Source: an uncultured Gammaproteobacteria bacterium
Lineage (GTDB): Bacteria > Patescibacteriota > Patescibacteriia > 2-12-FULL-60-25
Direction of reading: 5' to 3'
NCBI GenBank assembly: GCA_964457295.1
Contig: CAYWEE010000001.1
Span: 14,298 to 78,297 of the forward strand
Length of the DNA: 64,000 nucleotides
Shown: piece after piece, positions 9,628 to 59,510 of the stretch
How the letters are laid out: every line of letters begins with the position of its first letter
Position numbering within the stretch: the first letter of the stretch is position 1
Notes under the pieces: model-generated
Databases searched by the model: none
Told to the model about the DNA's origin: nothing
What the model saw: the letters and a program-made list of their open reading frames with translations, nothing else
Position numbers and translations under genes: made by a program

Positions 9628-9701
9628 TGGCTCGGGGACCTGGGCTCGAACCAGGATTCACGGCTTCAAAGGCCGCTGTCCTACCATTAGACGATCCCCG
9701 A
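9628..9701 (-). tRNA. tRNA-Gln (anticodon UUG), CCA encoded
   Basis: The reverse complement folds as a cloverleaf. Acceptor TCGGGGA/TCCCCGA, D arm GTCT-AATGGTA-GGAC, anticodon arm GCGGC-CTTTGAA-GCCGT, T arm CCTGG-TTCGAGC-CCAGG, discriminator G plus CCA. Confidence 0.95.
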
Positions 9702-9710
9702 AAGGCGAAC

Positions 9711-9823
9711 GCTCTGATTTGGCGAGCTTCGGGCGCTTCGCCTGGAAATATCCTCAACGTACGTCATAGTACGTCTCCGGTATTTCCGTGCTCCAGCATC
9801 CCGAATCTCATCCAAATCAGAGC
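9711..9823. repeat. ~113-bp imperfect palindrome, ERIC-like element, copy A (candidate structured RNA)
   Basis: Outer stem GCTCTGATTTGG/CCAAATCAGAGC, inner GGAAATA/TATTTCC, apical ACGTAC/GTACGT. Homologous copy at 47176-47297. Confidence 0.8.
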
Positions 9824-9852
9824 CTTCGAGATACCGTATAAGCGGGATTAGT

Positions 9853-14102: not shown

Positions 14103-14146
14103 GGAGGGCCCTGCACCGTCCGGTGCGGGGTGCCCCTACCATATAT

Positions 14147-15262
14147 ATGTTGATTGTAAAACACGTTTCTCTCGCTACGCTTATCTGGATTCGCCGGGTG
14201 ATGCTATGGGTGGCATTGCTCGGACTTTTTGCGTCCACGTATCTTTTGATTACCTATGTCTCTGGTACGCCCATCGTGTGTGGTTTGGTGAGCGGGTGTG
14301 AGGCGGTACGAGCATCGTCGTGGTCGTATACATTTGGCATCCCGCGTCCGGCATTGGGGGTAGCGTTTTATCTTGCGATCATCGGTTTGTTGATTTATCG
14401 CGTATACGCCCCGCATCATCTTCGACGGTGGAGCAATGTGAGTTGGTTATTAACGTTCGTCGGTTTTATCGAGTCCGGTTTTTTGACCCTAGTCCAATGG
14501 ATTGATATCAAGGCGTTTTGTATTTGGTGCTTGGTTTCGGCGGTCGCTTCGACGGTATTGTTCGTGCTGTCCTTTTTTGATGCTGAGGATCGTTTAGATA
14601 CGCGGATGGCGTTTCGTGAATTAAAAACGATTCTATTTTCATTCATTGTTGCCATGATTGCGGGTGGTTTGGGGTTGTATCTTTTGCTTGCCGCCCCATT
14701 GCGTGGAGAAAAGATTATTGAAAATGTTGTCGCTAAAGATCCGCAGGCTGCCGGCCTGATCCTTCCTACGACGCCGGTAGAGGGGCCCGTAAGTTCGACG
14801 GTCACCATTATTGAGTTTTTGGATTTTGAGTGTCCTGGCTGTGCAGCGTTTCACCCGGTTATGCAGCGGATTCGTCAGGAGTTTGCGGGCCGCATTCGCT
14901 ATGCGCAGCGTTTGTTTCCATTGGTCGAGACGCACCCGCATGCTAAAGGAGCGGCGATTGCTGCTGTTTGTGCGCAGCGACAGAATCAGTATTATCCCTA
15001 TGCGGATGCCTTAATCGTGAACCGTGACCATCTTACCCGTGATGATCTTATTCATTATGCCGAGGCCTTGCGTTTGGATCGTGCCGCTTTTGTGACCTGT
15101 CTTGATGATCCTACCGCCGCCGAAGTTGTTATCGCTGAACGCAAAGCTGGTGAAGCACTCGGTATTGATAGTACGCCAACCATCTTTTTAAACGACGCTG
15201 TTTTTGAAGGAATTCCAAGCTATGAACAACTCCGCACTCTCATCGAACAAGGCCTTAAATAA
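14147..15262 (+). CDS. Vitamin K epoxide reductase (VKOR) fused to a DsbA/thioredoxin-like domain
   Basis: VKOR core with a CGLVSGC loop cysteine pair and CIWC active site in TM4, then FLDFECPGCAAFHP. ATG at 14147 (tracked GTG at 14123 lies inside a hairpin). Confidence 0.8.
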   Translation: MLIVKHVSLATLIWIRRVMLWVALLGLFASTYLLITYVSGTPIVCGLVSGCEAVRASSWSYTFGIPRPALGVAFYLAIIGLLIYRVYAPHHLRRWSNVSWLLTFVGFIESGFLTLVQWIDIKAFCIWCLVSAVASTVLFVLSFFDAEDRLDTRMAFRELKTILFSFIVAMIAGGLGLYLLLAAPLRGEKIIENVVAKDPQAAGLILPTTPVEGPVSSTVTIIEFLDFECPGCAAFHPVMQRIRQEFAGRIRYAQRLFPLVETHPHAKGAAIAAVCAQRQNQYYPYADALIVNRDHLTRDDLIHYAEALRLDRAAFVTCLDDPTAAEVVIAERKAGEALGIDSTPTIFLNDAVFEGIPSYEQLRTLIEQGLK

Positions 15263-17131: not shown

Positions 17132-17209
17132 CGGAATCCTTCGACTCCGCTGCTGCTCCGCTCAGGAAAGAATAAAGGAAATTCGTCCCTGAGCTTGTCG
17201 AAGGGCTAC
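17132..17209. repeat. Composite palindromic intergenic repeat (CCTGAGCTTGTCGAAGG family), copy R1
   Basis: CCTTCGA...CTCAGG...CCTGAG...TCGAAGG. The reverse complement matches blocks of 22093-22195. Confidence 0.75.
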
Positions 17210-17258: not shown

Positions 17259-17783
17259 TTACGCTTTCCCTAACGTCGTCTCTCCAGGTGTCCATTCTAC
17301 CGGGCAGAGATCGCCGGATTGTAAGGCCTGTAAGACGCGCAAGACCTCTTTGACCGAGCGTCCAACAGAGCCAGAGCTGATCAATGAGTACTTCACGATA
17401 CCTTCTGGATCGATGATGAACAGTCCGCGCTCGGCGGTGCCATTGCTTTCGTTCAAGACTTGGTAGTCGCGTGAAATCTTGAGCGTCGTATCGGCTAAGA
17501 TCGGATAGGTGACGCCTGGTAAATCTTTTTCAAACCAGGCTTTGTGGCTCCATTCAGAGTCGGTCGAAGCGGCGAGGACCGAGCAGTTCATGGCGGTGAA
17601 TTCCGCTTCATGATCCGAAAAGCCTTTTAACTCAGTCGGGCAAATAAAGGTAAAATCTCGTGGGTAAAAGAAGAAGACGAGCCATTTACCCTTGTAGTCG
17701 GCGAGATTTACCGTGGTGAATTGCCCTTTGTGATAGGTGGTAACGCCGGAAAAATCCGGAGCGGGTGTGCCAACTTGGATCAT
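17259..17783 (-). CDS. ahpC: Typical 2-Cys peroxiredoxin (AhpC/Prx1 family)
   Basis: FFFYPRDFTFICPTEL peroxidatic Cys and C-terminal GDLCPVEWTPG resolving Cys. Confidence 0.9.
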   Translation of the reverse strand: MIQVGTPAPDFSGVTTYHKGQFTTVNLADYKGKWLVFFFYPRDFTFICPTELKGFSDHEAEFTAMNCSVLAASTDSEWSHKAWFEKDLPGVTYPILADTTLKISRDYQVLNESNGTAERGLFIIDPEGIVKYSLISSGSVGRSVKEVLRVLQALQSGDLCPVEWTPGETTLGKA

Positions 17784-17790
17784 AGTGGTG

Positions 17791-17846
17791 AGAAAGGATA
17801 AAGAATAATAGTCCCTGAGTGTAGCGGAGCGGAATCGAAGGGCTAC
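17791..17846. repeat. Palindromic intergenic repeat, copy R2
   Basis: GTCCCTGAGTGTAGCGGAGCGGAATCGAAGGGCTAC. The reverse complement matches 43916-43947. Confidence 0.7.
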
Positions 17847-17854
17847 CGTTTATG

Positions 17855-18457
17855 TTATCGCTGCGTAGCTTGATATAACGCGTTCACCTTGTTCCAGTCA
17901 AGATTTTTCCAGAAGTCGGCGATATAGGCCTTACGATCGGAGCCGTAATCGATGAAATAGGCGTGTTCATACACATCGAGGACGAGAATGGGAAGAGCGC
18001 CCCAGACGCCACCTTGGTTATGCGCGTCTCCGGTGTAGGTACGGAGTGCCTTATCGTGCGTGTCCCAGGCGAGTACGACCCAGCCGCGGGCGGCCATACC
18101 ACAGGCGCTAAAGTAGGCGAGAAAGTTTTCGAGCGAGCCGTACTGAGCTGTTAAAGCTGCGACGATTTCTCCGGATGGAGTTCCGTTGCCGCCTAAAACC
18201 TCAAAATACCATTCATGGAGATAGATGCCGTTTACCGTAAAAGTCTCGCCATCCTTGAGGGCTCGGAGTTCCGAGTAGGACTGGTTTGCGCCTGACAGAT
18301 CTCCTTCGCCGTGAGAGAGCTTGAGTAATTTTTCTGTGATCTCATTTTTCTTGGCTACGTATCCTGCGTACAGTTTGTCGTGATGGATGGCGATGGTTTT
18401 ATCAGAAATTCCCTGCAAAGAACCTTGAAAGGGAAGGGGTTTGGCTTCGTGTGGCAT
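17855..18457 (-). CDS. sod: Fe/Mn superoxide dismutase
   Basis: HHDKLYAGYV and DVYEHAYFIDYGSDRKAYI motifs. Confidence 0.9.
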   Translation of the reverse strand: MPHEAKPLPFQGSLQGISDKTIAIHHDKLYAGYVAKKNEITEKLLKLSHGEGDLSGANQSYSELRALKDGETFTVNGIYLHEWYFEVLGGNGTPSGEIVAALTAQYGSLENFLAYFSACGMAARGWVVLAWDTHDKALRTYTGDAHNQGGVWGALPILVLDVYEHAYFIDYGSDRKAYIADFWKNLDWNKVNALYQATQR

Positions 18458-18505
18458 AGTTGAAGAGAAAAAGTAGTTAGTAGGCGGTAGGCAGTAGCGA
18501 AGGAG

Positions 18506-18961
18506 TTAAGATGAGAAGGCTTTGAGGATATCGGCATTTTTAGGCATGCCGCGTTTGAGATAGACGATGACGCCGTCCTTATTGATCCCGACCACCGTGC
18601 GTCGAATAATAGAGAGCCCGAGAAGTGAGCGAACCGCTCCGTAGCTTTTACTGACTGATTTATCGGTATCAATCAGTAGTGGAAAAGGAAAGCTATGCTT
18701 CTCGAGAAAAGCGCGGTGATGGGCAGCGGAGCCGTGGTTTATCCCAAAGACGAGCGTATCCGAAGATCGGAATTTTGACCAATCATCACGTACCGCGCAG
18801 AGCTGCATGGTGCAACCTGGAGTCATGTCTCCAGGATAAAAGATCAACACAACATTATGTTTCCCGCGAAAGTCAGCGAGTGAAACGGTTGTGCCGTTTT
18901 GATCTTTAAGCGTAAATAGAGGGGCCGGATCTTTAACGGCCAGAGCAGGGGAAGAGGGCAT
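18506..18961 (-). CDS. bcp: Thiol peroxidase Bcp (peroxiredoxin Q family)
   Basis: FYPGDMTPGCTMQLC active-site region. Confidence 0.85.
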   Translation of the reverse strand: MPSSPALAVKDPAPLFTLKDQNGTTVSLADFRGKHNVVLIFYPGDMTPGCTMQLCAVRDDWSKFRSSDTLVFGINHGSAAHHRAFLEKHSFPFPLLIDTDKSVSKSYGAVRSLLGLSIIRRTVVGINKDGVIVYLKRGMPKNADILKAFSS

Positions 18962-20518: not shown

Positions 20519-21223
20519 TTAGGTTCCGGTGCGTTGTTGGGGAAGATGCATGTTGGGAAAGAGGCGACGGCGATAGAAGGCGTTGCGGAGGGGCTGAAGA
20601 AAAGTAAGATCGCGCGTGAGACGTGTGAGCGTTGGGTCGTGCGTATCTTTTTTTAAGGCTACGAGCGTGCGTTTTTCGTGCCATTTTTCTATGCAGATAT
20701 CTTCAATAGCACGAACATATGGCTCAAGGGTTTCGTCAGACATGTTCGTCCGATAGGCGGTTATCGCTTCTGTGAGTGTGTGGATTTGCTGTTCCATCGC
20801 TTCGCTGTATTCTCGATACGTATCGAGATCATGGCGTTGCGGATTGATTCGTTCGTTCCAGGTATCCTGTACTCTGGCAATGAGACTGCGAAGTCGGTGG
20901 ATGATTTCTTCATTGGATACGTACCCTTCTTCATTCGGTGTGCCTGTGTACAGAAGTTTGCGTAGCTCGTTTGTATCTTGTCCGATCATCCGTTTTTTGA
21001 GAATCAAATCTAGAAGGAATGGTTCGTATACTTCCGGATCGTGATCAATGTGTCCCTGGGATTCTAAGAATGCATTTAGTGCGCGTCGACTGGGTAAGAT
21101 GGGCTCACGACGTTCAATGCGACGAGCGTAGGAGCGTGGAGGAGCTGGAGCAGCTGTCAGAGCTGTAGGAGCCTGGTTCTCGAAGGGGCTGGGTATTTTT
21201 GTAAAATCAATACCGGTCTTCAT
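20519..21223 (-). CDS. Hypothetical protein co-transcribed with era
   Basis: ATG at 21223 overlaps the era TGA as ATGA. No motif recognised. Confidence 0.55.
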   Translation of the reverse strand: MKTGIDFTKIPSPFENQAPTALTAAPAPPRSYARRIERREPILPSRRALNAFLESQGHIDHDPEVYEPFLLDLILKKRMIGQDTNELRKLLYTGTPNEEGYVSNEEIIHRLRSLIARVQDTWNERINPQRHDLDTYREYSEAMEQQIHTLTEAITAYRTNMSDETLEPYVRAIEDICIEKWHEKRTLVALKKDTHDPTLTRLTRDLTFLQPLRNAFYRRRLFPNMHLPQQRTGT

Positions 21224-22065
21224 ACAAAGCGTTCTTGCCACTTGGGATCAACGTCTACGGTGAGCTCAAGCATGGTTTTGGTGTTGGTGGCGCCTTCGAT
21301 TTCTTTACGTGCGGCTGTGCCGATTTTTTTAAGCATAGCTCCTTTGGCGCCGATAATCATGCCTTTATAGCGTTCGGCATTGGTCCAAATGGTGGCTTCG
21401 ATATGCTGTGAGCCGTTGGGTCGAGGAGTCATTGTTTCGAGGGAGACGGTGATGCTGTAGGGGAGCTCTTCGTTTAAGTGTAAAAAGATTTTTTCGCGAA
21501 TCAATTCTTCGATCCACTTTTTATGATCCATGTCGGTGAGTTGCAGTTCGGGATAGTGAGCCGGTCCTTCGGGGGCGATCATGAATAATGCATCGACGAG
21601 GCGATTGAGGTTGTTGTGCGTTTTGGCACTGATCTTGATAGATGCGATAGCTCCGACGTTGGCGTTTTCATAGGCGGCAGCGTAGGGGGAGGACACATCA
21701 GATTTATTGATCACGGAAATGATGGGGACATGCGTCGCGCGCAAGAGTTTTTGCAAATGCGTTTCTTCTTCGCCGGGTTCACGCGTTGGATCCATCACGT
21801 ACACGATCGCGTCAACGCCCTGCAGTGTTTCTTCGACAAACTGGTTGAGTTTTTTTGAGACGCGATCACGGTTACCTAAAAATACGCCCGGCGTATCAAC
21901 AAAGACGATTTGTCCACGCGGATCGTGCAAAATACCGCGAATAGGATGGCGGGTGGTTTGTGGTTTAGGTGTTACGATGGCGACTTTCGATCCGACGAGG
22001 GCATTCAAGAGCGTGGATTTACCGACGTTGGAACGTCCGGCTAACATGACAAAACTGGATTTCAT
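21220..22065 (-). CDS. era: GTPase Era
   Basis: GRSNVGKSTLLNAL (G1), DTPG (G3), NKSD (G4), plus a C-terminal KH domain. Confidence 0.9.
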   Translation of the reverse strand: MKSSFVMLAGRSNVGKSTLLNALVGSKVAIVTPKPQTTRHPIRGILHDPRGQIVFVDTPGVFLGNRDRVSKKLNQFVEETLQGVDAIVYVMDPTREPGEEETHLQKLLRATHVPIISVINKSDVSSPYAAAYENANVGAIASIKISAKTHNNLNRLVDALFMIAPEGPAHYPELQLTDMDHKKWIEELIREKIFLHLNEELPYSITVSLETMTPRPNGSQHIEATIWTNAERYKGMIIGAKGAMLKKIGTAARKEIEGATNTKTMLELTVDVDPKWQERFV

Positions 22066-27505: not shown

Positions 27506-27558
27506 GGGGAGGGCGAATTGCCAATCTGGCTTTTTTCGGGCAGACTGGGCGAACACAG

Positions 27559-27585
27559 AGGGCGGACACATCGGTCCGCCCCTAC
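27559..27585. repeat. GC hairpin repeat AGGGCGGACRCATCGGTCCGCCCCTAC (copy 2)
   Basis: 26 of 27 nt identical to 2404-2430. Ends 4 nt before the lepA ATG. Confidence 0.6.
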
Positions 27586-29407: not shown

Positions 29408-29427
29408 TACAGTGAGCTTGTCGAACT

Positions 29428-34076: not shown

Positions 34077-36221
34077 ATGGAGGCTAAGCGTCGCGCGGTT
34101 CGGCGTAGGGTCTCTCGTGTAGAGCGAGGGTCGTTGTTTTGGCGTACGCATCACTTGTTAGCTGCGTTTTTGTTGTGCGTCAGTGTTGGGATGTTACTGG
34201 CTTCGTTGACCGTTTCGGTGACGCCTCGGGGTGCTCGTGCGTCATCGGCCGAGAATGTTATGGGATGGATTTGGTCTGATGCGGTGGGGTGGATATCCAT
34301 GAATGATCAAAATGTGGGTGCGTGTGGTGCTGGAGGGTGTGGTGTGTATGGAGTGAATGTTGACCCCGCCTCTCGCGAATTGACGGGTTTTGCTTGGTCG
34401 GATGGGGCGGGGTGGATTTGTGTTGGTACGACATGCAGCACCGATCCGTCGTGTGATGGCGTGCCTCCGGATGGGGCCTTGAAGGCGTATTTGGATCAGG
34501 GGATAGGGACGGTAGAGGCGCATGGGTGGGCTAAGGCGTGTAATTTGGGTGACGATGGTTGGATCTCGCTCAATTGCGCAGAAGTTGGAGCCTGCGCGTC
34601 GCTGAATCCGTATTATAAAGTTGTTTTCAATCCGGCGACCGGATATTTCAATGACGTTTCTGTTCCCGGATCCTCATTTGCGTGGAACGGCACAGTGGGT
34701 GGTGTGGGGTATGGCTACATGGATTTTTCTAATGTATTCATCGCTCCGGAGGGAACGGCGACATCTACGCCTGGACAGCCTCAGCCACAATGTCAGGATG
34801 GGGTTGATAATGATTTAAATGGTGTTGATGATTGCTCGGATCCGGCTTGTAGCGCTGATCCGGCGTGCGGAGAGGATCCGAATAATGGAAGCTGTGTTGA
34901 CGGGGTGGATAACAATAATAATGGTGTCATCGATTGCAATGAAGTGAGCTGTTCTGCGGCGGCGAACTGTCAAGAAAATCCAAATAATGGATCGTCGTGC
35001 CAAGATGGCGTAGATAATAATTTGAATGGAACGCAAGATTGTCAGGAGGTGGCTTGCCAGCCGACGCCCGTGTGCGCAGAGACGCCGGTGAATGGATCGT
35101 CGTGCCAAGACGGTATGGATAATAACGGCAATGGTCTCCAGGATTGTCAGGAGGTAGCTTGTCAGGCCTCACCGGTGTGTGTCGAGACGCCTCAAAATGG
35201 TGCCGCGTGTCAGGATGGTATTGATAATGATGGCAATGGTTTTGTCGATTGTCTCGACGCGCTATGTAGCGCTTCTCCGGTATGTGTGTTGGCCGGAGAG
35301 GCGACAGCTGTTGATCCGGTGACGGGGCTTCCGGTCGGTCAGGATGCGGCTTGTTCTGATGGGACTGATAATGATGGGAATGGTTTGGCAGATTGTGCGG
35401 ATCAAAACTGTTTGAATGCACCGATTTGTACACCTGCTTGGTTACAGGCTAAGTTTGGCAACGTGTATGCTCAAGCTGGGATTAGCGGCGTGGCCAAGTC
35501 GCACGCTACGTATTGTTTAACTTCCGATGGAGATATTACCGGCTTTACGAGTAGCAGCACGTGTATTGAGGCGCAGTCAGGTCAAGATATTCACCTGCCA
35601 AATGAAACGACGGGATACCAGGGGAGTTTGGGGCGCATCGATATCGCCGGTATCTTGAGCGGTCGATATGGAGCGGTGGTATCAAATCCTGTTTCTGTTC
35701 CTCCATCACTTGATGGAAAGGTGTATGTCGTTAACGGAGATTATACCCTTGGTGCTACGACCTTTTTGAATCAATCCGGACCTACGGCTCGAGGCAATGG
35801 TCTTTTGGTGGTGCAGGGTAATCTTACCATCGGAGGAAACCTGTCTTACCCATCTAATGTACTGACGCAGTATGTGCGTAACTTGGCATCATTTGGGGTG
35901 ATCGTGATGCGGGATCCACAAACGGGACAAGGGGGGGGTATCTACATCGCTCCTGGGGTGACGCACATTGTTGGGGCATACTTTGCCGAGGATACTCTGC
36001 ATACGGGAACGCTCTGTCCAAGCTCCATGAGCTGCGCGCTTGATCAGCCGTTGACGATTATGGGGTTAGCGGCGGCCCGTCGCTTCTCGTTTGAGCGTGG
36101 GTATCACAATGCCTCGATGGCGGCCGAGACGATCATTAACGATAGTCGCGCGGTCGCGAACCCCCCACCGGGCATGCAAGAAGTTTCACAATCGTTACCT
36201 CGTTCTAAAGACGCATTTTAG
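34077..36221 (+). CDS. Large secreted or membrane-anchored Cys-rich repeat protein (putative pilus-associated adhesin)
   Basis: N-terminal TM, GWIWSDAVGWISMN / GFAWSDGAGWI motifs, six CxDGxDNDxNGxxDC modules, and a C-terminal ~260-aa domain. Confidence 0.8.
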   Translation: MEAKRRAVRRRVSRVERGSLFWRTHHLLAAFLLCVSVGMLLASLTVSVTPRGARASSAENVMGWIWSDAVGWISMNDQNVGACGAGGCGVYGVNVDPASRELTGFAWSDGAGWICVGTTCSTDPSCDGVPPDGALKAYLDQGIGTVEAHGWAKACNLGDDGWISLNCAEVGACASLNPYYKVVFNPATGYFNDVSVPGSSFAWNGTVGGVGYGYMDFSNVFIAPEGTATSTPGQPQPQCQDGVDNDLNGVDDCSDPACSADPACGEDPNNGSCVDGVDNNNNGVIDCNEVSCSAAANCQENPNNGSSCQDGVDNNLNGTQDCQEVACQPTPVCAETPVNGSSCQDGMDNNGNGLQDCQEVACQASPVCVETPQNGAACQDGIDNDGNGFVDCLDALCSASPVCVLAGEATAVDPVTGLPVGQDAACSDGTDNDGNGLADCADQNCLNAPICTPAWLQAKFGNVYAQAGISGVAKSHATYCLTSDGDITGFTSSSTCIEAQSGQDIHLPNETTGYQGSLGRIDIAGILSGRYGAVVSNPVSVPPSLDGKVYVVNGDYTLGATTFLNQSGPTARGNGLLVVQGNLTIGGNLSYPSNVLTQYVRNLASFGVIVMRDPQTGQGGGIYIAPGVTHIVGAYFAEDTLHTGTLCPSSMSCALDQPLTIMGLAAARRFSFERGYHNASMAAETIINDSRAVANPPPGMQEVSQSLPRSKDAF
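34791..35429 (+). repeat. Six tandem ~105-bp coding repeats (Cys-rich, Asp/Asn-rich modules)
   Basis: For example TCGTCGTGCCAAGATGGCGTAGATAATAA at ~34993 recurs at ~35098. Protein modules: CQDGVDNDLNGVDDCSDPAC..., CQDGVDNNLNGTQDCQEVAC..., and so on. Confidence 0.85.
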
Positions 36222-41571: not shown

Positions 41572-41955
41572 ATGTCCAAGCTTCGTATTTTATTGGTTGA
41601 GGATGACGGGTTTTTGGCCAGCATTTACGCTCAAAAATTGGAGATTGAGGGATTTGAGGTGGCTTTTGCGACAAATGGTGAGGATGGGTTGCGGTTAGCG
41701 CATAAGGATCCGGCGCCGGATTTGATTTTGCTAGATCTCTTAATGCCCAAGATGGATGGGTTTGAGCTTTTAGAAAAATTAAAAGGGGATGAAAAAACCA
41801 AAGCAGTGCCTGTCTTGATCCTGACTAATCTTGGACAAAAAGAAGATGTGGATCGCTGTATGAAGTTGGGAGCGGTGGGATATATTATCAAGGCGCATGC
41901 GTTGCCACAGGAGACGGTAAAGCGCATCAAAGAAATATTGCATGTCGGCGTTTAA
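41572..41955 (+). CDS. Stand-alone CheY-like response-regulator receiver
   Basis: ILLVEDDGF...PDLILLDLLMPKMDGFELL...LTNLGQ...K. No output domain. Confidence 0.85.
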   Translation: MSKLRILLVEDDGFLASIYAQKLEIEGFEVAFATNGEDGLRLAHKDPAPDLILLDLLMPKMDGFELLEKLKGDEKTKAVPVLILTNLGQKEDVDRCMKLGAVGYIIKAHALPQETVKRIKEILHVGV

Positions 41956-43150
41956 ATATCGCGTTCGCACGGCGAGCGGTGAAGTGCAGGCTGGGGTGAT
42001 TCAGGCTGAGAGTATGGAGTTGGCCGAAGAGGCCCTACGTGAACGCGGCATGACGCCGATGTTGCTTGAGCCGTATCGGGGAATCGCCTCGGGTGGTGGT
42101 TCGTTTACCATTTTGCATCGCATCAGCTCTAAAGAGGTCGTGGGTATTTCTCGCGCCTTGTCGGTGATGGTTTCGGCCTCGGTGCCGATTACGGAAGCGC
42201 TGCACAATATGGCGCGACAGGCCGATAATCCGCGTTTGCGTTTTATTTTGTTGGATATCGCCTCTGAGGTTGAGGGTGGCGGACGCTTGTCGGATGCGAT
42301 TGAGCGGCATGTACAGGTTTTTGGTGCGTTTTTCGTGAACATGATTCGATCCGGCGAAACCTCGGGTCAGCTTTCCGAGGTTTTGGAATATCTCGCTGAT
42401 CAGCAAGAGAAGGATTACGATCTCAAATCAAAAATTCGCGGCGCCATGATCTATCCCGCTTTTATTATGGGATCTATGGTGATCGTGGGGTTTGTCATGA
42501 TGGCGTTTGTCGTGCCCAAGCTGTTATCTGTTTTACGCGAGGCGAATGTAGCGCTGCCTCTGCCGACACGAATGTTGATTGCGGTTTCGGGTTTCTTTGC
42601 CAATTTTTGGTGGTTGATTCTTATCTTGGTTGCGATTTTTGCGATCGCCTTTCGCGTATTCATGACTACGCCGTTGGGTAAATACGTGATCGATCTTGTC
42701 TTGCTTCGTTTGCCGATTTTTGGGCGGTTGTTTCAAGGGATGTACGTCGTGCGCTTTACCCGTTCGCTTTCAACGCTTGTCAAAGGTGGGGTGGACACGG
42801 TAGGGGCTTTGACGATTGTGGCCGAAGTGGTGGGAAATGAGGTTTGGAAGCGCATGATTCAAGAAACGATCCGCGAGGTTAATGATGGGAACTCGTTGAC
42901 CACGGTGTTTGAGCGTTCGCCGTTTGTGCCCTCGATGATGAATCAGATGCTGGCAGTGGGGGAGCATACTGGACGAACGCAGGAGATTTTGCAGCGTGTG
43001 AGCGCGTTTTATAGTCGCGAGATTGACAATGTGGTGGCTAATTTGGTGGCTTTGATTGAGCCGATTGTGTTGCTTTTGTTAGGTGCAGGTGTGGGGATTT
43101 TGGTTTCGGCGATTTTATTGCCATTGTATTCACTGTCTACTGGGGTTTAG
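41942..43150 (+). CDS. pilC: Type IV pilus platform protein PilC (GspF family)
   Basis: Two GspF repeats. 402 aa, 3 TM. Confidence 0.9.
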   Translation: MSAFKYRVRTASGEVQAGVIQAESMELAEEALRERGMTPMLLEPYRGIASGGGSFTILHRISSKEVVGISRALSVMVSASVPITEALHNMARQADNPRLRFILLDIASEVEGGGRLSDAIERHVQVFGAFFVNMIRSGETSGQLSEVLEYLADQQEKDYDLKSKIRGAMIYPAFIMGSMVIVGFVMMAFVVPKLLSVLREANVALPLPTRMLIAVSGFFANFWWLILILVAIFAIAFRVFMTTPLGKYVIDLVLLRLPIFGRLFQGMYVVRFTRSLSTLVKGGVDTVGALTIVAEVVGNEVWKRMIQETIREVNDGNSLTTVFERSPFVPSMMNQMLAVGEHTGRTQEILQRVSAFYSREIDNVVANLVALIEPIVLLLLGAGVGILVSAILLPLYSLSTGV

Positions 43151-43173
43151 AGCAGGGGATAAATTCCTTGTGG

Positions 43174-43282
43174 ATATGTCTCCCGCCAGGGCACATGTCC
43201 CTTCCCGGTCTGCGGATTCCCTTTAGGTGGATGGTCAGCGTCCTATCCCGTCCAGAGACATGTGCCCTGGCGGGAGACATAT
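43174..43282. repeat. Hairpin element with a conserved 56-nt core, copy 1 (candidate structured RNA or terminator-attenuator)
   Basis: Perfect 26-bp inverted repeat 43174-43199 / 43257-43282. The block 43201-43265 is identical to 58226-58290. Confidence 0.85.
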
Positions 43283-43320
43283 CTTTTTTTATGTTTAAAA
43301 GTGCGAAGTACCTTTCATCG

Positions 43321-43329
43321 TGCTATACT
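43321..43329 (+). promoter_or_regulatory. Candidate extended -10 promoter TGCTATACT for the major pilin gene
   Basis: TGnTATACT lies 36 nt upstream of the ATG at 43365. Confidence 0.4.
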
Positions 43330-43364
43330 CCACTTATTCATTTCATCCATCTTTATATCTTGCT

Positions 43365-43862
43365 ATGCAGAAAACTAAAGGGTTTACCCTTATCGAACTA
43401 TTGGTTGTGGTCGGGATTATTGGTCTGTTGGCGACACTTGCTGTGGTGGCGTTTGGAAGTGCTCGAGTGAAGGCGCGGGATGCCAAGCGTGTGGCTGATG
43501 TTCGTTCGGTGGTTTCTGGTCTTGCCGGAGCCGCACAGGATAGTTTGTATCTTTGTCAAAAGGGATGTGGTGCGCCACTTGCGGCAGGGGATTTGGTGAG
43601 CGCTTCGGATATTTGTAACGTGAATTGTAATGGTTCTAGTGCTAATTCTGTGTCTATTAACTATATCAATTTAGGTATTGTGCAGGATGCGGATCAGGCC
43701 AATTGGAGCACAGCATGTGATGGGTCTAACACCAAGTGTAATTATGCCTACGGTGCCGGCTCCACGATTGAGAGTTTTACGATTAACTTCTTTACCGAGC
43801 AGGCTGTACAGGGTATCGCAGCTGGGGCGCATACGGCGGCTCAAACAGGTATCGTTAAATAA
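43365..43862 (+). CDS. Type IV pilin (probable major pilin)
   Basis: Prepilin leader MQKTKG|FTLIELLVVVGIIGLLA, with a Cys-containing C-terminal domain. Confidence 0.9.
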   Translation: MQKTKGFTLIELLVVVGIIGLLATLAVVAFGSARVKARDAKRVADVRSVVSGLAGAAQDSLYLCQKGCGAPLAAGDLVSASDICNVNCNGSSANSVSINYINLGIVQDADQANWSTACDGSNTKCNYAYGAGSTIESFTINFFTEQAVQGIAAGAHTAAQTGIVK

Positions 43863-43871
43863 GAGAAAATA

Positions 43872-43947
43872 GTTCCTGAGCTTGTCGAAGGATGACCAAA
43901 ATCAAAGTATTGCGGCCCTTCGATTCCGCTCCGCTGCACTCAGGGAC
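43872..43947. repeat. Composite palindromic intergenic repeat, copy R4
   Basis: TTCCTGAGCTTGTCGAAGGA...GCCCTTCGATTCCGCTCCGCTGCACTCAGGGAC. Confidence 0.75.
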
Positions 43948-46601: not shown

Positions 46602-47177
46602 ATGCATTCCGGTTTTTCTCTTCTTGAGATGTTGATTGTGATTGCGTTATTTTCGACGCTAACGGTGATTGTCTCGCAAACGTTTATTTCTTTTTCTACG
46701 CTTCATCGTCGTACGGCGAATGCAGCTGTGGTGGGCGCGGAGATGCGTTTTGTTATGGAGTATATCGTTCGAGCTGCCCGGAATCGGGAGTTGAATTATG
46801 TGCTGGCTCCCTTAGATCCGCAGGATACGGTTTTGCATTTGCGTGATTCCACCGGTGCGACGCTGGATGTTGGCTTGCGTCCGGGTGGAACGGGCGGAGA
46901 TTGTGCAGATGCCACCGTGACTCAGTGCTTAGCGGTTTCGATTGACGGTGGAACGACGTGGCAGCCGCTTACGGGTAAGCGGGTTGAGGTAACGAGTTTT
47001 CGTGTGTATCCACGTCCGGCAGATTCGCCGTTCGCTTCGGTGAATGGAGTATACGCATCCAATGTTCAACCGTTTGTGACAGTGACGGTTGGGCTGCGCT
47101 ACATGAGCGAACGGGTAAAAGAGCAGGCAAGTTTGGAGGCGCAGACGACCGTAAGCTCCCGTATCTATGTCCGGTAA
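46602..47177 (+). CDS. Minor pilin / pseudopilin
   Basis: MHSG|FSLLEMLIVIALFSTL. SD AAGAGG precedes the ATG at 46602. Confidence 0.75.
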   Translation: MHSGFSLLEMLIVIALFSTLTVIVSQTFISFSTLHRRTANAAVVGAEMRFVMEYIVRAARNRELNYVLAPLDPQDTVLHLRDSTGATLDVGLRPGGTGGDCADATVTQCLAVSIDGGTTWQPLTGKRVEVTSFRVYPRPADSPFASVNGVYASNVQPFVTVTVGLRYMSERVKEQASLEAQTTVSSRIYVR

Positions 47178-47297
47178 CATTGTTTTATTTGGCGAGCTTC
47201 GGGCGCTTCGGTCAAAAATATCCTCAGCGTACTTACGGTACGCTTCCAGTATTTTTGCCCTCCAGCATCCCAAATCTCATCCAAATAAAACAATGTT
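47176..47297. repeat. ~122-bp imperfect palindrome, ERIC-like element, copy B
   Basis: Outer 17-bp stem AACATTGTTTTATTTGG / CCAAATAAAACAATGTT. Homologous to 9711-9823. Spans exactly from the upstream TAA to the downstream ATG. Confidence 0.85.
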
Positions 47298-55768: not shown

Positions 55769-56523
55769 TTCCCTATATTGAGTGGCACGCGTTTCAGGTT
55801 TTTGGTGTCACGTTTCAAGTATGGGGGATGTTTGTCGCTGTGGCGTTTATCGTTGCTACGGCGATTGCGGCACGACGCGCTAAAATACAAGGGCTTCATC
55901 CGCGTCATGTCTGGGATGTGGCGGCGTGGATTTTTATCGCCGCGTTTATCGGGGCGCGTCTAGTTCATGTCATATTTTATGAGCCTGCGTTCGCCTTGGC
56001 GCATCCGTGGAGTATTATCGACCCTCGTTTGCCGGGATTTGCTATCTATGGAGGCTTTATCGGCGCTGTTGTCGCATTTGTGTGGTACATACGACGGCAT
56101 AAGCTTGATCTTCTTTCTTATGCTGACGCCTTGGCTTGGGGATTGCCCTGGGGGTGTGGGATTGGGCGGATCGGTTGTTTTTTAATCCACGATCATCCCG
56201 GAACGCTGACGTCGTTTGTCTTAGGGGTGAAATATCCGGATGGGTCCGTACACCATGATTTGGGTTTGTATCTATCACTTGTCGGTTTCGCGATTGGCTT
56301 GATCTTTTTGATCTTCCGTCGTCGCCGTCTGCCGCCTGGATTTTTTGTGGCAGCTTTTTTCGTCCTTGATGCTACCGCGCGCCTCTGGCTTGATTTCTAT
56401 CGACTTGCGGATACGCGCTATGCTAGTCTTACTCCTACGCAGTGGATATCCATCCCTTTGATTCTGGGGGGCGGATACTGGCTCGTTGGTATGCTTCGGA
56501 GTAGTCCTAAATCTTCCGCTTAA
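55765..56523 (+). CDS. lgt: Prolipoprotein diacylglyceryl transferase
   Basis: ATGA overlap. Multi-TM with GARLVHVIFY and GIGRIGCFLIHDHPG (a variant of the GRxGNF motif). Confidence 0.75.
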   Translation: MIPYIEWHAFQVFGVTFQVWGMFVAVAFIVATAIAARRAKIQGLHPRHVWDVAAWIFIAAFIGARLVHVIFYEPAFALAHPWSIIDPRLPGFAIYGGFIGAVVAFVWYIRRHKLDLLSYADALAWGLPWGCGIGRIGCFLIHDHPGTLTSFVLGVKYPDGSVHHDLGLYLSLVGFAIGLIFLIFRRRRLPPGFFVAAFFVLDATARLWLDFYRLADTRYASLTPTQWISIPLILGGGYWLVGMLRSSPKSSA

Positions 56524-56539
56524 ACTTCCTCCTGTTTTT

Positions 56540-57235
56540 ATGACTGAAGAGCGTTCTCGTGTATTTATTTTGGTCGGCATCATTGCGTTGGTGGCGGTAG
56601 CTATCATCGGCATTGTGGTGGCGATTTTAGCTGGCCCTGATCCTTCTACGGGACCCGGTCAGGTCGAAACAGGATTGTCATTTTCTGATGAGGCTGATCC
56701 GACGCAGGGTCCGGGAGAGGCAAAGGTGATTGTTCGTATGTTCAGTGATTTTCAGTGTCCGGCATGTCAGGCGGCCGAGCCGGCCTTGCAGGCGATCATG
56801 AAAAAATATGTTGATCGCGTTCGATTTGTTTGGAATGATTTTCCATTAACAACCATTCATCAAAACGCTTTAGCTGCGTCGAACGCGGCTCGATGTGCCG
56901 AAGAGCAAGGAAAGTTTTGGGAGATGCATGATGTGTTATATGCGCGTCAACGAAGCTGGTCGGATCTTCCGGCTCCAACGTCTGAATTTACCAAGTATGC
57001 TCAAGAGATTGGGTTAAATGAGGGTGCATTTACTGCGTGTGTGGGTGGTAGTCGCCATGCGCGTAAAGTTGACAACGATCGTGCCGAAGGAACGCGAAAT
57101 ACGGTTCGAGCAACCCCTACGTTCTTTGTTAACAATCGCCGCATTGAGGGTGTGGTTACTGAAGCTCAATGGGAGCAGGTCTTAGAAGCTGAACTATCAG
57201 CTACGTCGTCCTCTGGCGCGACTTCAACCCCTTGA
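56540..57235 (+). CDS. DsbA-family thiol:disulfide oxidoreductase, membrane anchored
   Basis: TM anchor plus FSDFQCPACQAAEP. Confidence 0.8.
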   Translation: MTEERSRVFILVGIIALVAVAIIGIVVAILAGPDPSTGPGQVETGLSFSDEADPTQGPGEAKVIVRMFSDFQCPACQAAEPALQAIMKKYVDRVRFVWNDFPLTTIHQNALAASNAARCAEEQGKFWEMHDVLYARQRSWSDLPAPTSEFTKYAQEIGLNEGAFTACVGGSRHARKVDNDRAEGTRNTVRATPTFFVNNRRIEGVVTEAQWEQVLEAELSATSSSGATSTP

Positions 57236-57321
57236 CGCGCCTCTCGACCCCTGCATTCCGACGCGCTATCCTCATTCGTACGATTTTAGGGTAGAAATTT
57301 AATTTCATTTATTTCATCACC

Positions 57322-58134
57322 ATGTCTGAACAGCCTCATATGCACGAGCATCCTCATCCACACATGGACCCATCTTCTGTAGGTCCATTTAGCGGATCTC
57401 CTCGAACCATGTTTTATCTGGGTTTGTTTGTAGGGATCGCGGCGTATACGACGTTGTCGTTACTGTTGTTGCTTTCGTTTATTGTTTCTGGCAAGTCTGT
57501 TCCTGGTTTGGGTGGTTCTGGTACGGATTCAGTGGCTGTAGCTCCGACGCCGAGCGCCGCCCAGCCTTCCGCGCAAGCTCCTTCGGCTGCGGCTCCCGTG
57601 AAGCCTGTGGATGAAAAAGCTGATCATATTCTTGGTGCCAAGAACGCCAAAGTAACATTGATTGAATATTCAGACTTCGAATGTCCGTTCTGCAAGCGCC
57701 ACTTTGATACGATGAATCAAGTGATGAAGAAGTATCCAAATGATGTGCGTTTGGTCTTCCGTCATTTTCCTCTCTCGTTTCATCAGAACGCCCAAAAGGA
57801 GGCCGAAGCTTCAGAATGTGCGGCCGAGTTGGGTGGAAACGACGCGTTTTGGAAGTTCCACGACAAGATTTTTACCGAAACAACATCAAATGGCACGGGT
57901 ATCGCGTTGACGCGTCTCGCTCCGATGGCCAAAGAACTTGGCTTGGACGAAAAGAAATTTCAGACCTGTCTTGATTCTGGAAAGTACGCCGCCAAGGTTG
58001 CTCAGCAGATGCAAGAAGGTTCTGATGCCGGTGTGCAGGGTACGCCTGGCACGTTCGTGAACGGTCAATTGGTCGAAGGAGCTGTTCCTCTCGCTCAATT
58101 CACGACCATGATTGATGGGATGTTGAAGAAGTAA
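57322..58134 (+). CDS. DsbA-family thiol:disulfide oxidoreductase with a His-rich N-terminus
   Basis: MSEQPHMHEHPHPHMD, a TM anchor and YSDFECPFCKRHF. Confidence 0.8.
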   Translation: MSEQPHMHEHPHPHMDPSSVGPFSGSPRTMFYLGLFVGIAAYTTLSLLLLLSFIVSGKSVPGLGGSGTDSVAVAPTPSAAQPSAQAPSAAAPVKPVDEKADHILGAKNAKVTLIEYSDFECPFCKRHFDTMNQVMKKYPNDVRLVFRHFPLSFHQNAQKEAEASECAAELGGNDAFWKFHDKIFTETTSNGTGIALTRLAPMAKELGLDEKKFQTCLDSGKYAAKVAQQMQEGSDAGVQGTPGTFVNGQLVEGAVPLAQFTTMIDGMLKK

Positions 58135-58164
58135 GTTGTTGCTTCAAGTAGCAGATACAATAAC

Positions 58165-58195
58165 AATCCCCTCTAAAACAGAGGGGATTTTGTTA
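58165..58195 (+). terminator. Intrinsic terminator after the second dsbA-like gene
   Basis: AATCCCCTC-TAAAACA-GAGGGGATT followed by TTGTTATT. Confidence 0.75.
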
Positions 58196-58200
58196 TTGAG

Positions 58201-58305
58201 ATTTCTCCCGCTCCAGCACATGCCTCTTCCCGGTCTGCGGATTCCCTTTAGGTGGATGGTCAGCGTCCTATCCCGTCCAGAGACATGTGCTGGAGCGGGA
58301 CAAAT
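58201..58305. repeat. Hairpin element with a conserved 56-nt core, copy 2
   Basis: 24-bp stem 58201-58224 / 58282-58305 with 2 mismatches. Its core is identical to copy 1. Confidence 0.85.
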
Positions 58306-58310
58306 ATTCT

Positions 58311-59510
58311 TTATAAGGATGTCTCCATTGGATATCCTTTCTTCTTCCATGCGGCATTCACATCGTCAAATGGTTCGGTGTAAGTGCGACCAAGACGTTG
58401 GAGGCGGATACCGAGGACTTTGGCGTAAAAGCAATTGACGTAGCTGTTGCAGTAGATAAGTAGATCGGCCGTAGGGGGGACGAGAGAGATGATGCGGTTG
58501 ACCTCGGCCGTCGTTGTGGTTTCGAGGGGTAGAGACAGGGCGCCTAGAAGATGGCCGTCGGCATAGTCTTTCGGAGATGTTACATCAATGATCGTGGCCT
58601 TGTTATCGAATTTCTTTTTGGCTTCGTCGAGTGACATAGAGTAGGAGGGCGCGAAGACTTGGCTCCAACGTGTATGGCCCCGCCATGGTAATCCAGCATC
58701 AATCCAGCCCGGTTGTGATGGCATGTTGATGTCGCCTTGTAATCCTCCCTGGATGGCATATGCGCGAGGAAAGCCGTGTGCCCGTAACCAGGTGGCAATT
58801 TCTTGGCCACGGAGACTGGTCCAGCAAATGACGAGAATATCTTTGTCATGTGGCAATGTCTCGGCCTGTCCGTTAATCAAGTCTCCATACCGGATCCAGG
58901 TTGTCGTCGCATCGATGTTTCCTACCTCGCGTTCTTCAGCTTCGCGGATATCAACCAGAAACGTGCGGTCTGACCAGCCTGGCTCGGCTACCACTTGACG
59001 TAACGTTTCAATTGGGACCAGGATAGTAGAAGAGGAGACACGAGACGAGAGGAGATTGGCTGATGTCATTCCGACCGACGAGTCTTCGAGGAGCGGAGGA
59101 ATCCCTTCGAAGGGGTCCCTCGGTTCGTCGGACTCACTCGGGACGACAGATGGGATGTTTTCGTTTGCGTGTTCTATTTCGTATTGAGCCCGTTCGGTTT
59201 TAAATGCTTGTTGAGAGCGACGCAGATGGAGATAGGCAGAGCTGCTCACGATGATGAGGGTCAAAGTAAAGCTTCCTCCAAGGCATATCCAGGCGGCGCG
59301 GCGATGTTTGGGGGTTAGGCGCTGTGCGGTACGCTTGATCCAGATACCGAGCGCTCCAAATACCGTTGAAGCAACCCCGATCATGGTGAAGATCCAGGCG
59401 ACAACGGGCCTAACGAAGTCGGGTGAGGGGATGGCAAAGGTGGGGGCAGCGGTAAAGAGTCCGATGCAGACGAGAGCGGTAATAAGGATTATCATGGCAG
59501 TATGATGCAT
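58311..59510 (-). CDS. Membrane-anchored tandem rhodanese-domain protein
   Basis: Three N-terminal TM helices and two rhodanese-like domains (ILVICWTSLRG; LLIYCNSYVNC). Alternative start at 59495 avoids overlap with the divergent gene. Confidence 0.75.
   Translation of the reverse strand: MHHTAMIILITALVCIGLFTAAPTFAIPSPDFVRPVVAWIFTMIGVASTVFGALGIWIKRTAQRLTPKHRRAAWICLGGSFTLTLIIVSSSAYLHLRRSQQAFKTERAQYEIEHANENIPSVVPSESDEPRDPFEGIPPLLEDSSVGMTSANLLSSRVSSSTILVPIETLRQVVAEPGWSDRTFLVDIREAEEREVGNIDATTTWIRYGDLINGQAETLPHDKDILVICWTSLRGQEIATWLRAHGFPRAYAIQGGLQGDINMPSQPGWIDAGLPWRGHTRWSQVFAPSYSMSLDEAKKKFDNKATIIDVTSPKDYADGHLLGALSLPLETTTTAEVNRIISLVPPTADLLIYCNSYVNCFYAKVLGIRLQRLGRTYTEPFDDVNAAWKKKGYPMETSL

Follow-up and report, generated by a model that had tools for sequence, protein, structure and literature searches.

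The 64,000-nucleotide stretch of DNA analyzed here (the window) contains two copies of a 111-nt hairpin, one downstream of pilC (copy 1) and one in the gap between a dsbA-like and a rhodanese gene (copy 2). The second copy adjoins a canonical terminator, and the first-pass annotation described it as a seemingly redundant hairpin whose loop core is identical to that of copy 1. The question raised by this locus is what such a hairpin represents: a chance palindrome, a spare terminator, a mobile repeat, or a structure that is maintained for a function of its own. At the most general level the answer is clear; the element is a real, selected and lineage-restricted dispersed hairpin, neither a chance palindrome nor a mere spare terminator. 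Redundancy says too little about a second hairpin beside a terminator, as the constraint on its loop clearly exceeds what a terminator needs.

The two copies are the two longest inverted repeats that the repeat finder reports in the window. The arms of copy 1 measure 30 nt and are 97% complementary, those of copy 2 (58201-58227 and 58279-58305) measure 27 nt and are 93% complementary, and 51 nt lie between the arms in both cases. Within copy 2, positions 58201-58224 pair with 58282-58305 with two mismatches, as originally described; the stem including the basal GAGAT/ATATT pairs corresponds to the arms listed in Table 1. An unbroken identity of 65 nt (43201-43265 and 58226-58290) covers the whole 51-nt loop, and a 30-mer from this core occurs exactly twice in the window, compared with 0.00 occurrences expected from shuffles. 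The similarity of the copies stops at the hairpin base. The element, with the ends TGTCTCCCGC...GCGGGAGACA, has a GC content of 52-55%, and both copies have the same orientation.

Table 1. Positions of the hairpin copies and of neighboring features in the window.
Feature	Position	Strand	Remarks
pilC (T2SSF)	41942-43150		followed by N-methyl pilin genes
Copy 1, left arm (GATATGTCTCCCGCCAGGGCACATGTCCCT)	43173..43202	+	variable block CAGG
Copy 1, loop, 51 nt	43203..43253	+	same letters as copy 2 loop
Copy 1, right arm	43254..43283	+	block CCTG; TTTTTTT directly 3' at 43284-43290
DsbA-like genes (two)	56486-57235 and 57322-58134		second gene Thioredoxin_4/DSBA
Terminator-like hairpin (AATCCCCTCT..AGAGGGGATT)	58165..58189	called on both strands	between dsbA and copy 2
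Direct repeat, left member (TTATTGAGAT)	58193..58202	+	imperfect 10-nt direct repeat flanking copy 2
Copy 2, left arm (GAGATTTCTCCCGCTCCAGCACATGCCTCT)	58198..58227	+	variable 4-nt block TCCA at 58212-58215
Copy 2, loop, 51 nt (TCCCGGTCTGCGGATTCCCTTTAGGTGGATGGTCAGCGTCCTATCCCGTCC)	58228..58278	+	same letters as copy 1 loop
Copy 2, right arm (AGAGACATGTGCTGGAGCGGGACAAATATT)	58279..58308	+	block TGGA, complementary to TCCA
Rhodanese-domain gene	58311-59510	-	stop codon at 58311-58313
Direct repeat, right member (TTATAAGGAT)	58311-58320		rhodanese stop codon and last two codons

Both copies are predicted to fold with high stability. Compared with shuffles, copy 1 reaches -70.0 kcal/mol on the plus strand (z -8.6) and -73.5 kcal/mol on the minus strand (z -11.2), and copy 2 reaches -53.9 kcal/mol (z -6.5) and -59.8 kcal/mol (z -8.1), respectively; no shuffled sequence matched the real energy of either copy on either strand. 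The folds calculated for single-stranded DNA (ssDNA) are also highly significant (z -6.8 and -7.7). The isolated loop, which is pyrimidine-rich, folds no better than its shuffles on both strands (z +0.9 and +0.8), which suggests that it is read as a sequence. A coding function of the loop is ruled out, given that it offers no ORF with a usable start and no variation of the synonymous type. The ORFs across the element are spurious read-through frames only; those at 43168..43470 and 58136..58438 share the peptide PGLRIPFRWMVSVLSRPETCA for precisely the reason given in the first-pass annotation, namely that both read through the element. A protein search with the plus-frame peptide yielded no candidates, and the protein matched by the minus-frame ORF (P0023) is an unrelated tandem-repeat protein, a match which we judge to be spurious.

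A third copy permits an estimate of the constraint. It was found via the rhodanese homolog P0002 (78% amino-acid identity) on a 1.7-kb NCBI metagenome contig (L002), in the equivalent convergent dsbA/rhodanese gap; because this is an independent assembly, the element is not an assembly artifact. Third codon positions of the flanking genes are about 70% identical between the window and L002 (dsbA 103/148, rhodanese 176/253), and their difference, 0.30, serves as the neutral rate. The element itself is identical at 101 of 106 positions. In the loop there are no substitutions in 51 nt (P ~9e-9 at the neutral rate) and one inserted A, whereas the stem carries 4 substitutions in 60 positions (P ~8e-6 for at most four). 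Each of the four creates a pair or re-establishes one: CCCA/TGGG replaces TCCA/TGGA, a C·A opposition turns into C-G, and a C·C opposition likewise turns into C-G. Between the paralogous copies 1 and 2, differences occupy 15 of the 60 stem positions and none of the 51 loop positions (Fisher P = 4e-5).

The same pattern emerges when copy 1, copy 2 and the L002 ortholog are aligned (alignment A3). Changes on both sides with pairing kept are found in 6 of 30 stem pairs, and 94% of the cells are paired, although the three known copies, two of them orthologs, provide few independent events. Among 500 column shuffles, only 2 show as much pairing and double change; when the partner is slid by 1-3 columns, pairing falls to 37-59%, with at most one double change. 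According to these comparisons, it is pairing that matters in the stem and sequence that matters in the loop, with purifying selection acting on both of them at the orthologous locus. Two processes could contribute to this picture. Arm-to-arm templated repair in long palindromes could yield matched changes without selection, and part of the conservation of the element could be regional, because the adjoining intergenic terminator segment is conserved between the window and L002 as well (59 of 66 aligned columns). The first-pass annotation had proposed to inspect related dsbA/rhodanese gaps, and would have abandoned its view had neither core nor stem pairing been conserved; L002 retains both.

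The presence of the element varies among relatives. In the window, the pilC-pilin gap extends over 215 nt, copy 1 being part of the roughly 157 additional bases, as against 52-56 nt in the five relatives sampled, all of which lack the element at this position. These relatives were drawn from L008/L009 (PilC 94% identical), JGI 3300071358 (93%; gap known from gene coordinates only), L010-L019 (68%) and L020 (69%). Where their DNA is available, the gap consists of approximately just the promoter-like sequence GTGCTATACT or GTGATATACT; in the window, the promoter-like GTGCTATACT of the pilin gene lies downstream of copy 1. The insertion of copy 1 need not be recent, since the relatives without the element are not close (third-codon identity of pilC between the window and L008 is 50%).

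At the rhodanese locus, the most informative relative besides L002 is L001 (rhodanese 82% identical). Its contig ends 22 nt past the stop codon; these 22 nt are unlike the element, which is thus probably missing from this gap, and L001 may have a different hairpin beyond them. A single TTATTGAGAT is joined directly to the last rhodanese codons in L001. This junction looks like an empty site; alternatively, the DNA separating the imperfect repeats TTATTGAGAT and TTATAAGGAT could have been deleted. Because the window, L001 and L002 are about equidistant, the order of gain and loss cannot be derived from them. The difference in length of the pilC-pilin gap, together with the differing sequence in L001, gives the element the character of an insertion. 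Sequence comparison thereby demonstrates that the element is repeated, that its pairing is kept through compensatory changes, that its loop and stem are under purifying selection, and that relatives differ in having or lacking it.

Farther rhodanese loci have other neighboring genes and ordinary terminators. The first-pass annotation had pointed out, with reservation, that both neighborhoods concern exported, disulfide-bonded proteins. We find this link unsupported: there are two loci only, the pilC-pilin gap is free of the element in 5 of 5 relatives, and on the rhodanese side the L001 gap does not show it, while distant loci have other neighbors.

Beyond L002, the element is rare in public data, and what is matched is matched by chance only. 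A covariance model (R1) detected no additional copy, either in the window or in related loci totaling about 200 kb; for the window and L021/L022, this result held even when the filters were switched off. Among 185,579 species-representative genomes, a core 21-mer gave 0 matches and a core 20-mer 2 chance matches, both in alphaproteobacterial coding regions; the 21-mer spans the site of the 1-nt insertion in L002 and is blind to L002-like copies. The core 20-mer matched JGI metagenome contigs once, by chance, inside an ORF; the core patterns gave 0 matches in viral contigs, and blastn against plasmids and phages no match to the element. In Rfam, a tRNA is the only match in the window at the gathering threshold. 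With E up to 10, the element weakly matches miRNA-precursor models by its hairpin shape only (18-28 bits, compared with thresholds of 62-96), and a known RNA family is ruled out at both settings.

The genomic context bears on the level at which the element may act. The dsbA-rhodanese gap is convergent and comprises 176 nt, with the rhodanese stop codon following 5 nt past position 58305; this arrangement, like the canonical terminator beside copy 2, had been described correctly. On the plus strand, copy 2 begins 3 nt past the dsbA terminator; on the minus strand, it is bounded by the rhodanese stop codon and that bidirectional terminator. Its tail is only weakly T-rich and in part coding. Copy 1 starts 22 nt past the pilC stop codon, is sense to pilC on the plus strand, and is followed by seven T residues. 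Neither copy was called in the terminator scan, and no promoter-like sites were called within the repeat unit or at its ends. The GC skew is positive in every 2-kb bin of the window (positions 1-64000; 0.03-0.25) and genes lie mostly on the plus strand, which places the window on one replication arm with the plus strand as the leading strand. Relative to this uniformly positive skew both copies have the same orientation, i.e. they lie on the same replication strand.

One explanation for the repetition could be that the element is a selfish MITE, that is, a deletion derivative of a DNA transposon which is moved in trans by a transposase binding the terminal inverted repeats, with no host role. 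Size and form agree with this: the element has 111 nt, no coding capacity, and terminal inverted repeats of 26-30 nt (arms of 27-30 nt, 93-97% complementary). Its copies, two in 64 kb and one ortholog, are dispersed and intergenic. The element-free pilC-pilin gaps likewise correspond to empty sites and to presence/absence among relatives, with third-codon identity to these relatives at 50-70%. In the frame TGTCTCCC...GGGAGACA, the flanks read TA..TA for copy 1 and GA..TA for copy 2, both possible target-site duplications, and the imperfect direct repeat TTATTGAGAT/TTATAAGGAT surrounds copy 2. Compared with shuffles, none of this is significant: the direct repeat fails when taken alone, and similarities beyond the hairpin that could indicate homology or target duplication give p = 0.07-0.66. 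Direct repeats are lost with age in MITEs, and MITE transcripts form stable stem-loops that may lie in 3' UTRs (PMC10969869).

What speaks most clearly against a selfish MITE is the distribution of the changes. The arms differ by 25% between the paralogs, always compensated, around an invariant interior, which is the opposite of what recognition by a transposase would lead one to expect, and the resident orthologous copy is conserved far above the neutral rate. Within the window, none of the approximately 50 ORFs has a transposase, RAYT, integrase or reverse transcriptase domain that would point to a parent element, no additional arm-like sites occur, and the GC content given above is not AT-rich. 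We consider this explanation unlikely.

In form, the element appears closest to the small dispersed palindromic repeats of the MITE/ERIC/Correia type, the invariant unpaired core being its unusual trait. Correia elements (CREE, NEMIS) of Neisseria are alike in having about 100-150 bp, with an inverted repeat of about 26 bp around a conserved core, in lying in intergenic regions at gene ends, in presence/absence between strains, and in being co-transcribed as RNA hairpins. They differ in exceeding 100 copies per genome and in their TA target duplication, end-generated promoters and IHF site, none of which is shown for the present element; furthermore, the host of the latter belongs to the CPR, its arms drift with compensation, and its core is unpaired and invariant. 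In Correia elements, the conserved core within the inverted repeat binds RNase III and IHF (PMC2649163). With architecture alone in common and no promoter-like site called at the ends, we do not assign the element to this class.

Imperfect palindromes with a length of about 127 bp, ERIC sequences lie in intergenic regions that are transcribed, frequently at 3' ends, and are able to influence the fate of mRNAs (PMC10969869). They are unrelated in sequence to the present element and palindromic over their whole length, in contrast to its 51-nt non-palindromic loop; in this respect they are more like a second hairpin family of the window (family 2, described below). The puzzle of ERIC conservation has reportedly been raised by Wilson and Sharp in 2006, who are said to have found these sequences unusually well conserved.

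A role at the level of DNA would have the advantage of removing the problem posed by the differing transcriptional settings of the two copies. The element could be a ssDNA hairpin recognized by its structure, as in REP/REPIN-RAYT, IS200/IS605-type or attC-type systems or as a replication or recombination signal, or its loop, framed by the inverted repeat, could be a duplex site for a protein. Pairing that is kept irrespective of sequence, the significant ssDNA folds and the common replication strand of both copies are consistent with such a role; a shared orientation of two copies is, on the other hand, a chance event of 50%. REPINs resemble the element as extragenic two-arm hairpins of about 70-110 nt in which compensatory changes across the hairpin are common; their ends, however, are invariant and the spacer is less conserved, the reverse of the present element with its invariant loop and varying arms (PMC3116915). 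Its arms are not REP-like, its copy number looks low, and no RAYT gene or other Y1 transposase is found in the window. Hence, we reject membership in the REPIN/REP-RAYT class.

As for attC sites, these imperfect palindromes, 57-141 nt long, follow genes at their 3' ends and are recognized by structure as folded single strands. The element is likewise an imperfect palindrome at gene 3' ends. The center of attC sites is variable, whereas that of the element is invariant, and the element has neither R''/R' boxes (RYYYAAC / GTTRRRY) at its ends nor a cassette array. The window contains no integron integrase and no HUH transposase. The genes on either side of the element belong to the syntenic core; pilC-pilin and dsbA/rhodanese represent conserved pairs on the chromosome rather than cassettes. 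Membership among attC sites is rejected on these grounds, and a DNA-level role in general appears to us rather unlikely.

Two further functions can be set aside with more assurance. The element might be a spare intrinsic terminator and nothing else, since T7 follows the strong stem of copy 1 and both copies lie at gene ends. A terminator has no need of an invariant 51-nt loop, which falls outside terminator norms; the scan did not call the element, and a canonical terminator adjoins copy 2. Or it might be an invertible promoter segment (inverton) controlling the pilin gene, as suggested by the inverted repeats that enclose a short stretch immediately before the major pilin gene. We reject the inverton, because a segment of 51 bp would be very short for one, the window revealed no recombinase, the pilin gene has its own promoter-like site downstream of the element (GTGCTATACT, which the relatives have too), copy 2 has no gene to switch, and the loop has the same orientation in the window and in L002. 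Either function is, in our estimation, highly improbable.

What is more demanding is the interpretation of an element whose stem is free in sequence and whose loop is not. A requirement for pairing but not for a given sequence in the stem, together with one exact sequence in the loop, points to the folded single strand as the target of selection, and the settings of copy 2 on the minus strand and of copy 1 on the plus strand suggest RNA in 3' UTRs. We thus tentatively propose, with a probability of roughly 0.45, that the element belongs to a lineage-restricted, non-coding hairpin family of about 111 nt in Patescibacteria (CPR), which is selected as a folded single strand, most likely RNA in 3' untranslated regions, and whose loop is a sequence-specific docking site. 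New copies would originate through duplicative insertion. The element would then be co-transcribed in the 3' untranslated region of a neighboring gene: copy 1 on the plus strand as the end of the pilC transcript, followed by T7, and copy 2 on the minus strand as part of the rhodanese 3' UTR, up to the shared bidirectional terminator; the plus strand of copy 2 would be transcribed only via read-through of the dsbA terminator. The stem of about 30 bp, free to change its sequence while pairing, would serve as a 3'-end hairpin, either in termination or as a barrier to exonucleases, or as a double-stranded target of RNase III, for which a stem of this length suffices. The single-stranded loop, kept letter for letter over its 51 nt, would be where a protein or another nucleic acid docks. 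Transcription, the acting strand, action as RNA rather than as ssDNA, and the molecular role are what we infer in this proposal.

Some observations sit uneasily with the docking-site proposal. The transcriptional settings of the copies differ, copy 1 being sense to pilC on the plus strand while copy 2 lies in a 3' UTR only on the minus strand. An attempt to identify the acting strand from wobble pairs and fold energies was rejected, as the asymmetry is inconsistent across copies. Taken together, these two points weaken a model with a strand-specific loop and keep a role as DNA or ssDNA alive. No complementary site of at least 12 nt for the loop was found in the 64-kb window. We reject as unlikely an anti-SD loop, or one that mimics an SD, because the genome barely uses Shine-Dalgarno sites.

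An invariant, unstructured and pyrimidine-rich loop on a long stem, identical in the paralogs, is also what a gene or precursor of a trans-acting small RNA might look like. The loop or the whole hairpin would be set free, for example through cleavage of the 30-bp stem by RNase III or as an sRNA derived from a 3' UTR, to pair with targets elsewhere; the U7 tract that ends copy 1 resembles the terminator of an sRNA. The repeat unit, however, has no promoter-like site, the similarity of the copies ends at the hairpin base, copy 2 starts 3 nt after the plus-strand terminator, and no complementary target occurs in the 64 kb. We regard an sRNA gene as quite unlikely. More speculatively, the element could represent an undescribed class in Patescibacteria, in which a free-sequence stem of about 30 bp presents an invariant, unstructured docking strand of 51 nt, or in which a novel single-strand transposition machinery recognizes the loop. 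We hold this to be doubtful; if it were true, the element, family 2 and a further hairpin from relative L010 (both described below) would imply that, in these streamlined genomes with few regulators, dispersed long hairpins of several families serve at gene ends as modules for regulation or processing.

Judging from the neighboring proteins, the window belongs to Patescibacteria (CPR), near Uhrbacteria-like genomes. Members of this group have tiny genomes with little non-coding DNA, and an element of 111 nt that is under strong purifying selection and ends at most 5 nt from a stop codon is unlikely to be junk. To our knowledge, small repeats and regulatory RNAs of Patescibacteria are almost unexplored, and a literature search found no paper devoted to MITEs in Patescibacteria/CPR; three papers contain both terms, with a single mention of each. 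Read from sequence comparison, the finding would be a solid but modest one that rests on three known copies. The combination of a frozen loop with a freely covarying stem provides a testable handle, with regard both to a binder of the loop and to the strand that is made. If a mobile hairpin has been co-opted as a 3'-end module, biology of the Correia/ERIC type extends to the CPR; if the element is merely a decaying repeat, it is nonetheless a useful strain marker.

Other hairpins and repeats occur in the window and its relatives. The hairpins of family 2, about 122 nt long and unrelated to the element, lie at 9706-9828 and 47176-47297 in the window and at 5613-5734 in L020. They are palindromic over their full length; the core is 84-87% identical between the window copies, and the L020 homolog aligns with a score of 50, compared with 14.7 for shuffles. 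The 17-bp basal stem is wholly different in 3 of 3 copies, yet perfect or nearly so, and compensatory changes occur in 22 of 50 predicted pairs; Rfam gives no match. One copy adjoins a tRNA gene (9631-9701, minus strand), while the arms of another overlap the stop codon of a pilin-like gene as well as the likely ATG of the gene after it, a site that comprises only 4 nt in L010. A hairpin of different sequence is found at 2085-2195 in L010 (PilC 68% identical), at a locus also present in L011 and L014: its 28-nt arms are 93% complementary and enclose 55 nt of loop, and it lies upstream of an RNase H gene, overlapping the point where an ABC-transporter gene has its stop codon. Its geometry is like that of the element; its sequence is unrelated (p ~0.5). 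Copy 1 is related neither to family 2 nor to this hairpin (p 0.3-0.8). For copy 2, the comparison with family 2 is borderline (p 0.01-0.08), owing to a common 9-mer, GCTCCAGCA, in the variable stem block, which we judge to be coincidental. Family 2 and the hairpins of the same geometry in relatives suggest that dispersed hairpins are a general feature of the clade.

With respect to gene content, the window is rich in thiol and redox functions, including a VKOR-DsbA (Thioredoxin_4) fusion protein (14123-15262), the pair of DsbA-like genes (56486-58134), and peroxiredoxins together with a superoxide dismutase (17259-18961). Most genes of the window have no Shine-Dalgarno sequence, and several have a -10 box of the TATACT type a few bases or about 35 nt from the ATG, with examples upstream of the start codons at 21220-22065 (minus strand), 36242 and 43366; these sequences suggest leaderless mRNAs or mRNAs with very short leaders. 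An invariant 13-mer, TGAGCTTGTCGAA, occurs in intergenic DNA just past gene ends at 17190-17202 (downstream of an AhpC-like gene), 29413-29425 (after LepA) and 43877-43889 (between the first two pilin genes), and is part of a longer 49-nt similarity in two of the three sites. Five copies of a 105-nt periodic repeat (34784-35396), 62-79% identical to the reference copy, lie in the ORF 34077-36221, which encodes a 714-aa protein without a Pfam match just upstream of pilM; each unit contains two TG(C/T) triplets, candidate cysteine codons. Finally, positions 2399-2430 and 27554-27585 are 32-nt stretches with 91% identity, and the GC-rich hairpin they contain (GGGCGGAC..GTCCGCCC) looks like a common terminator-like module.
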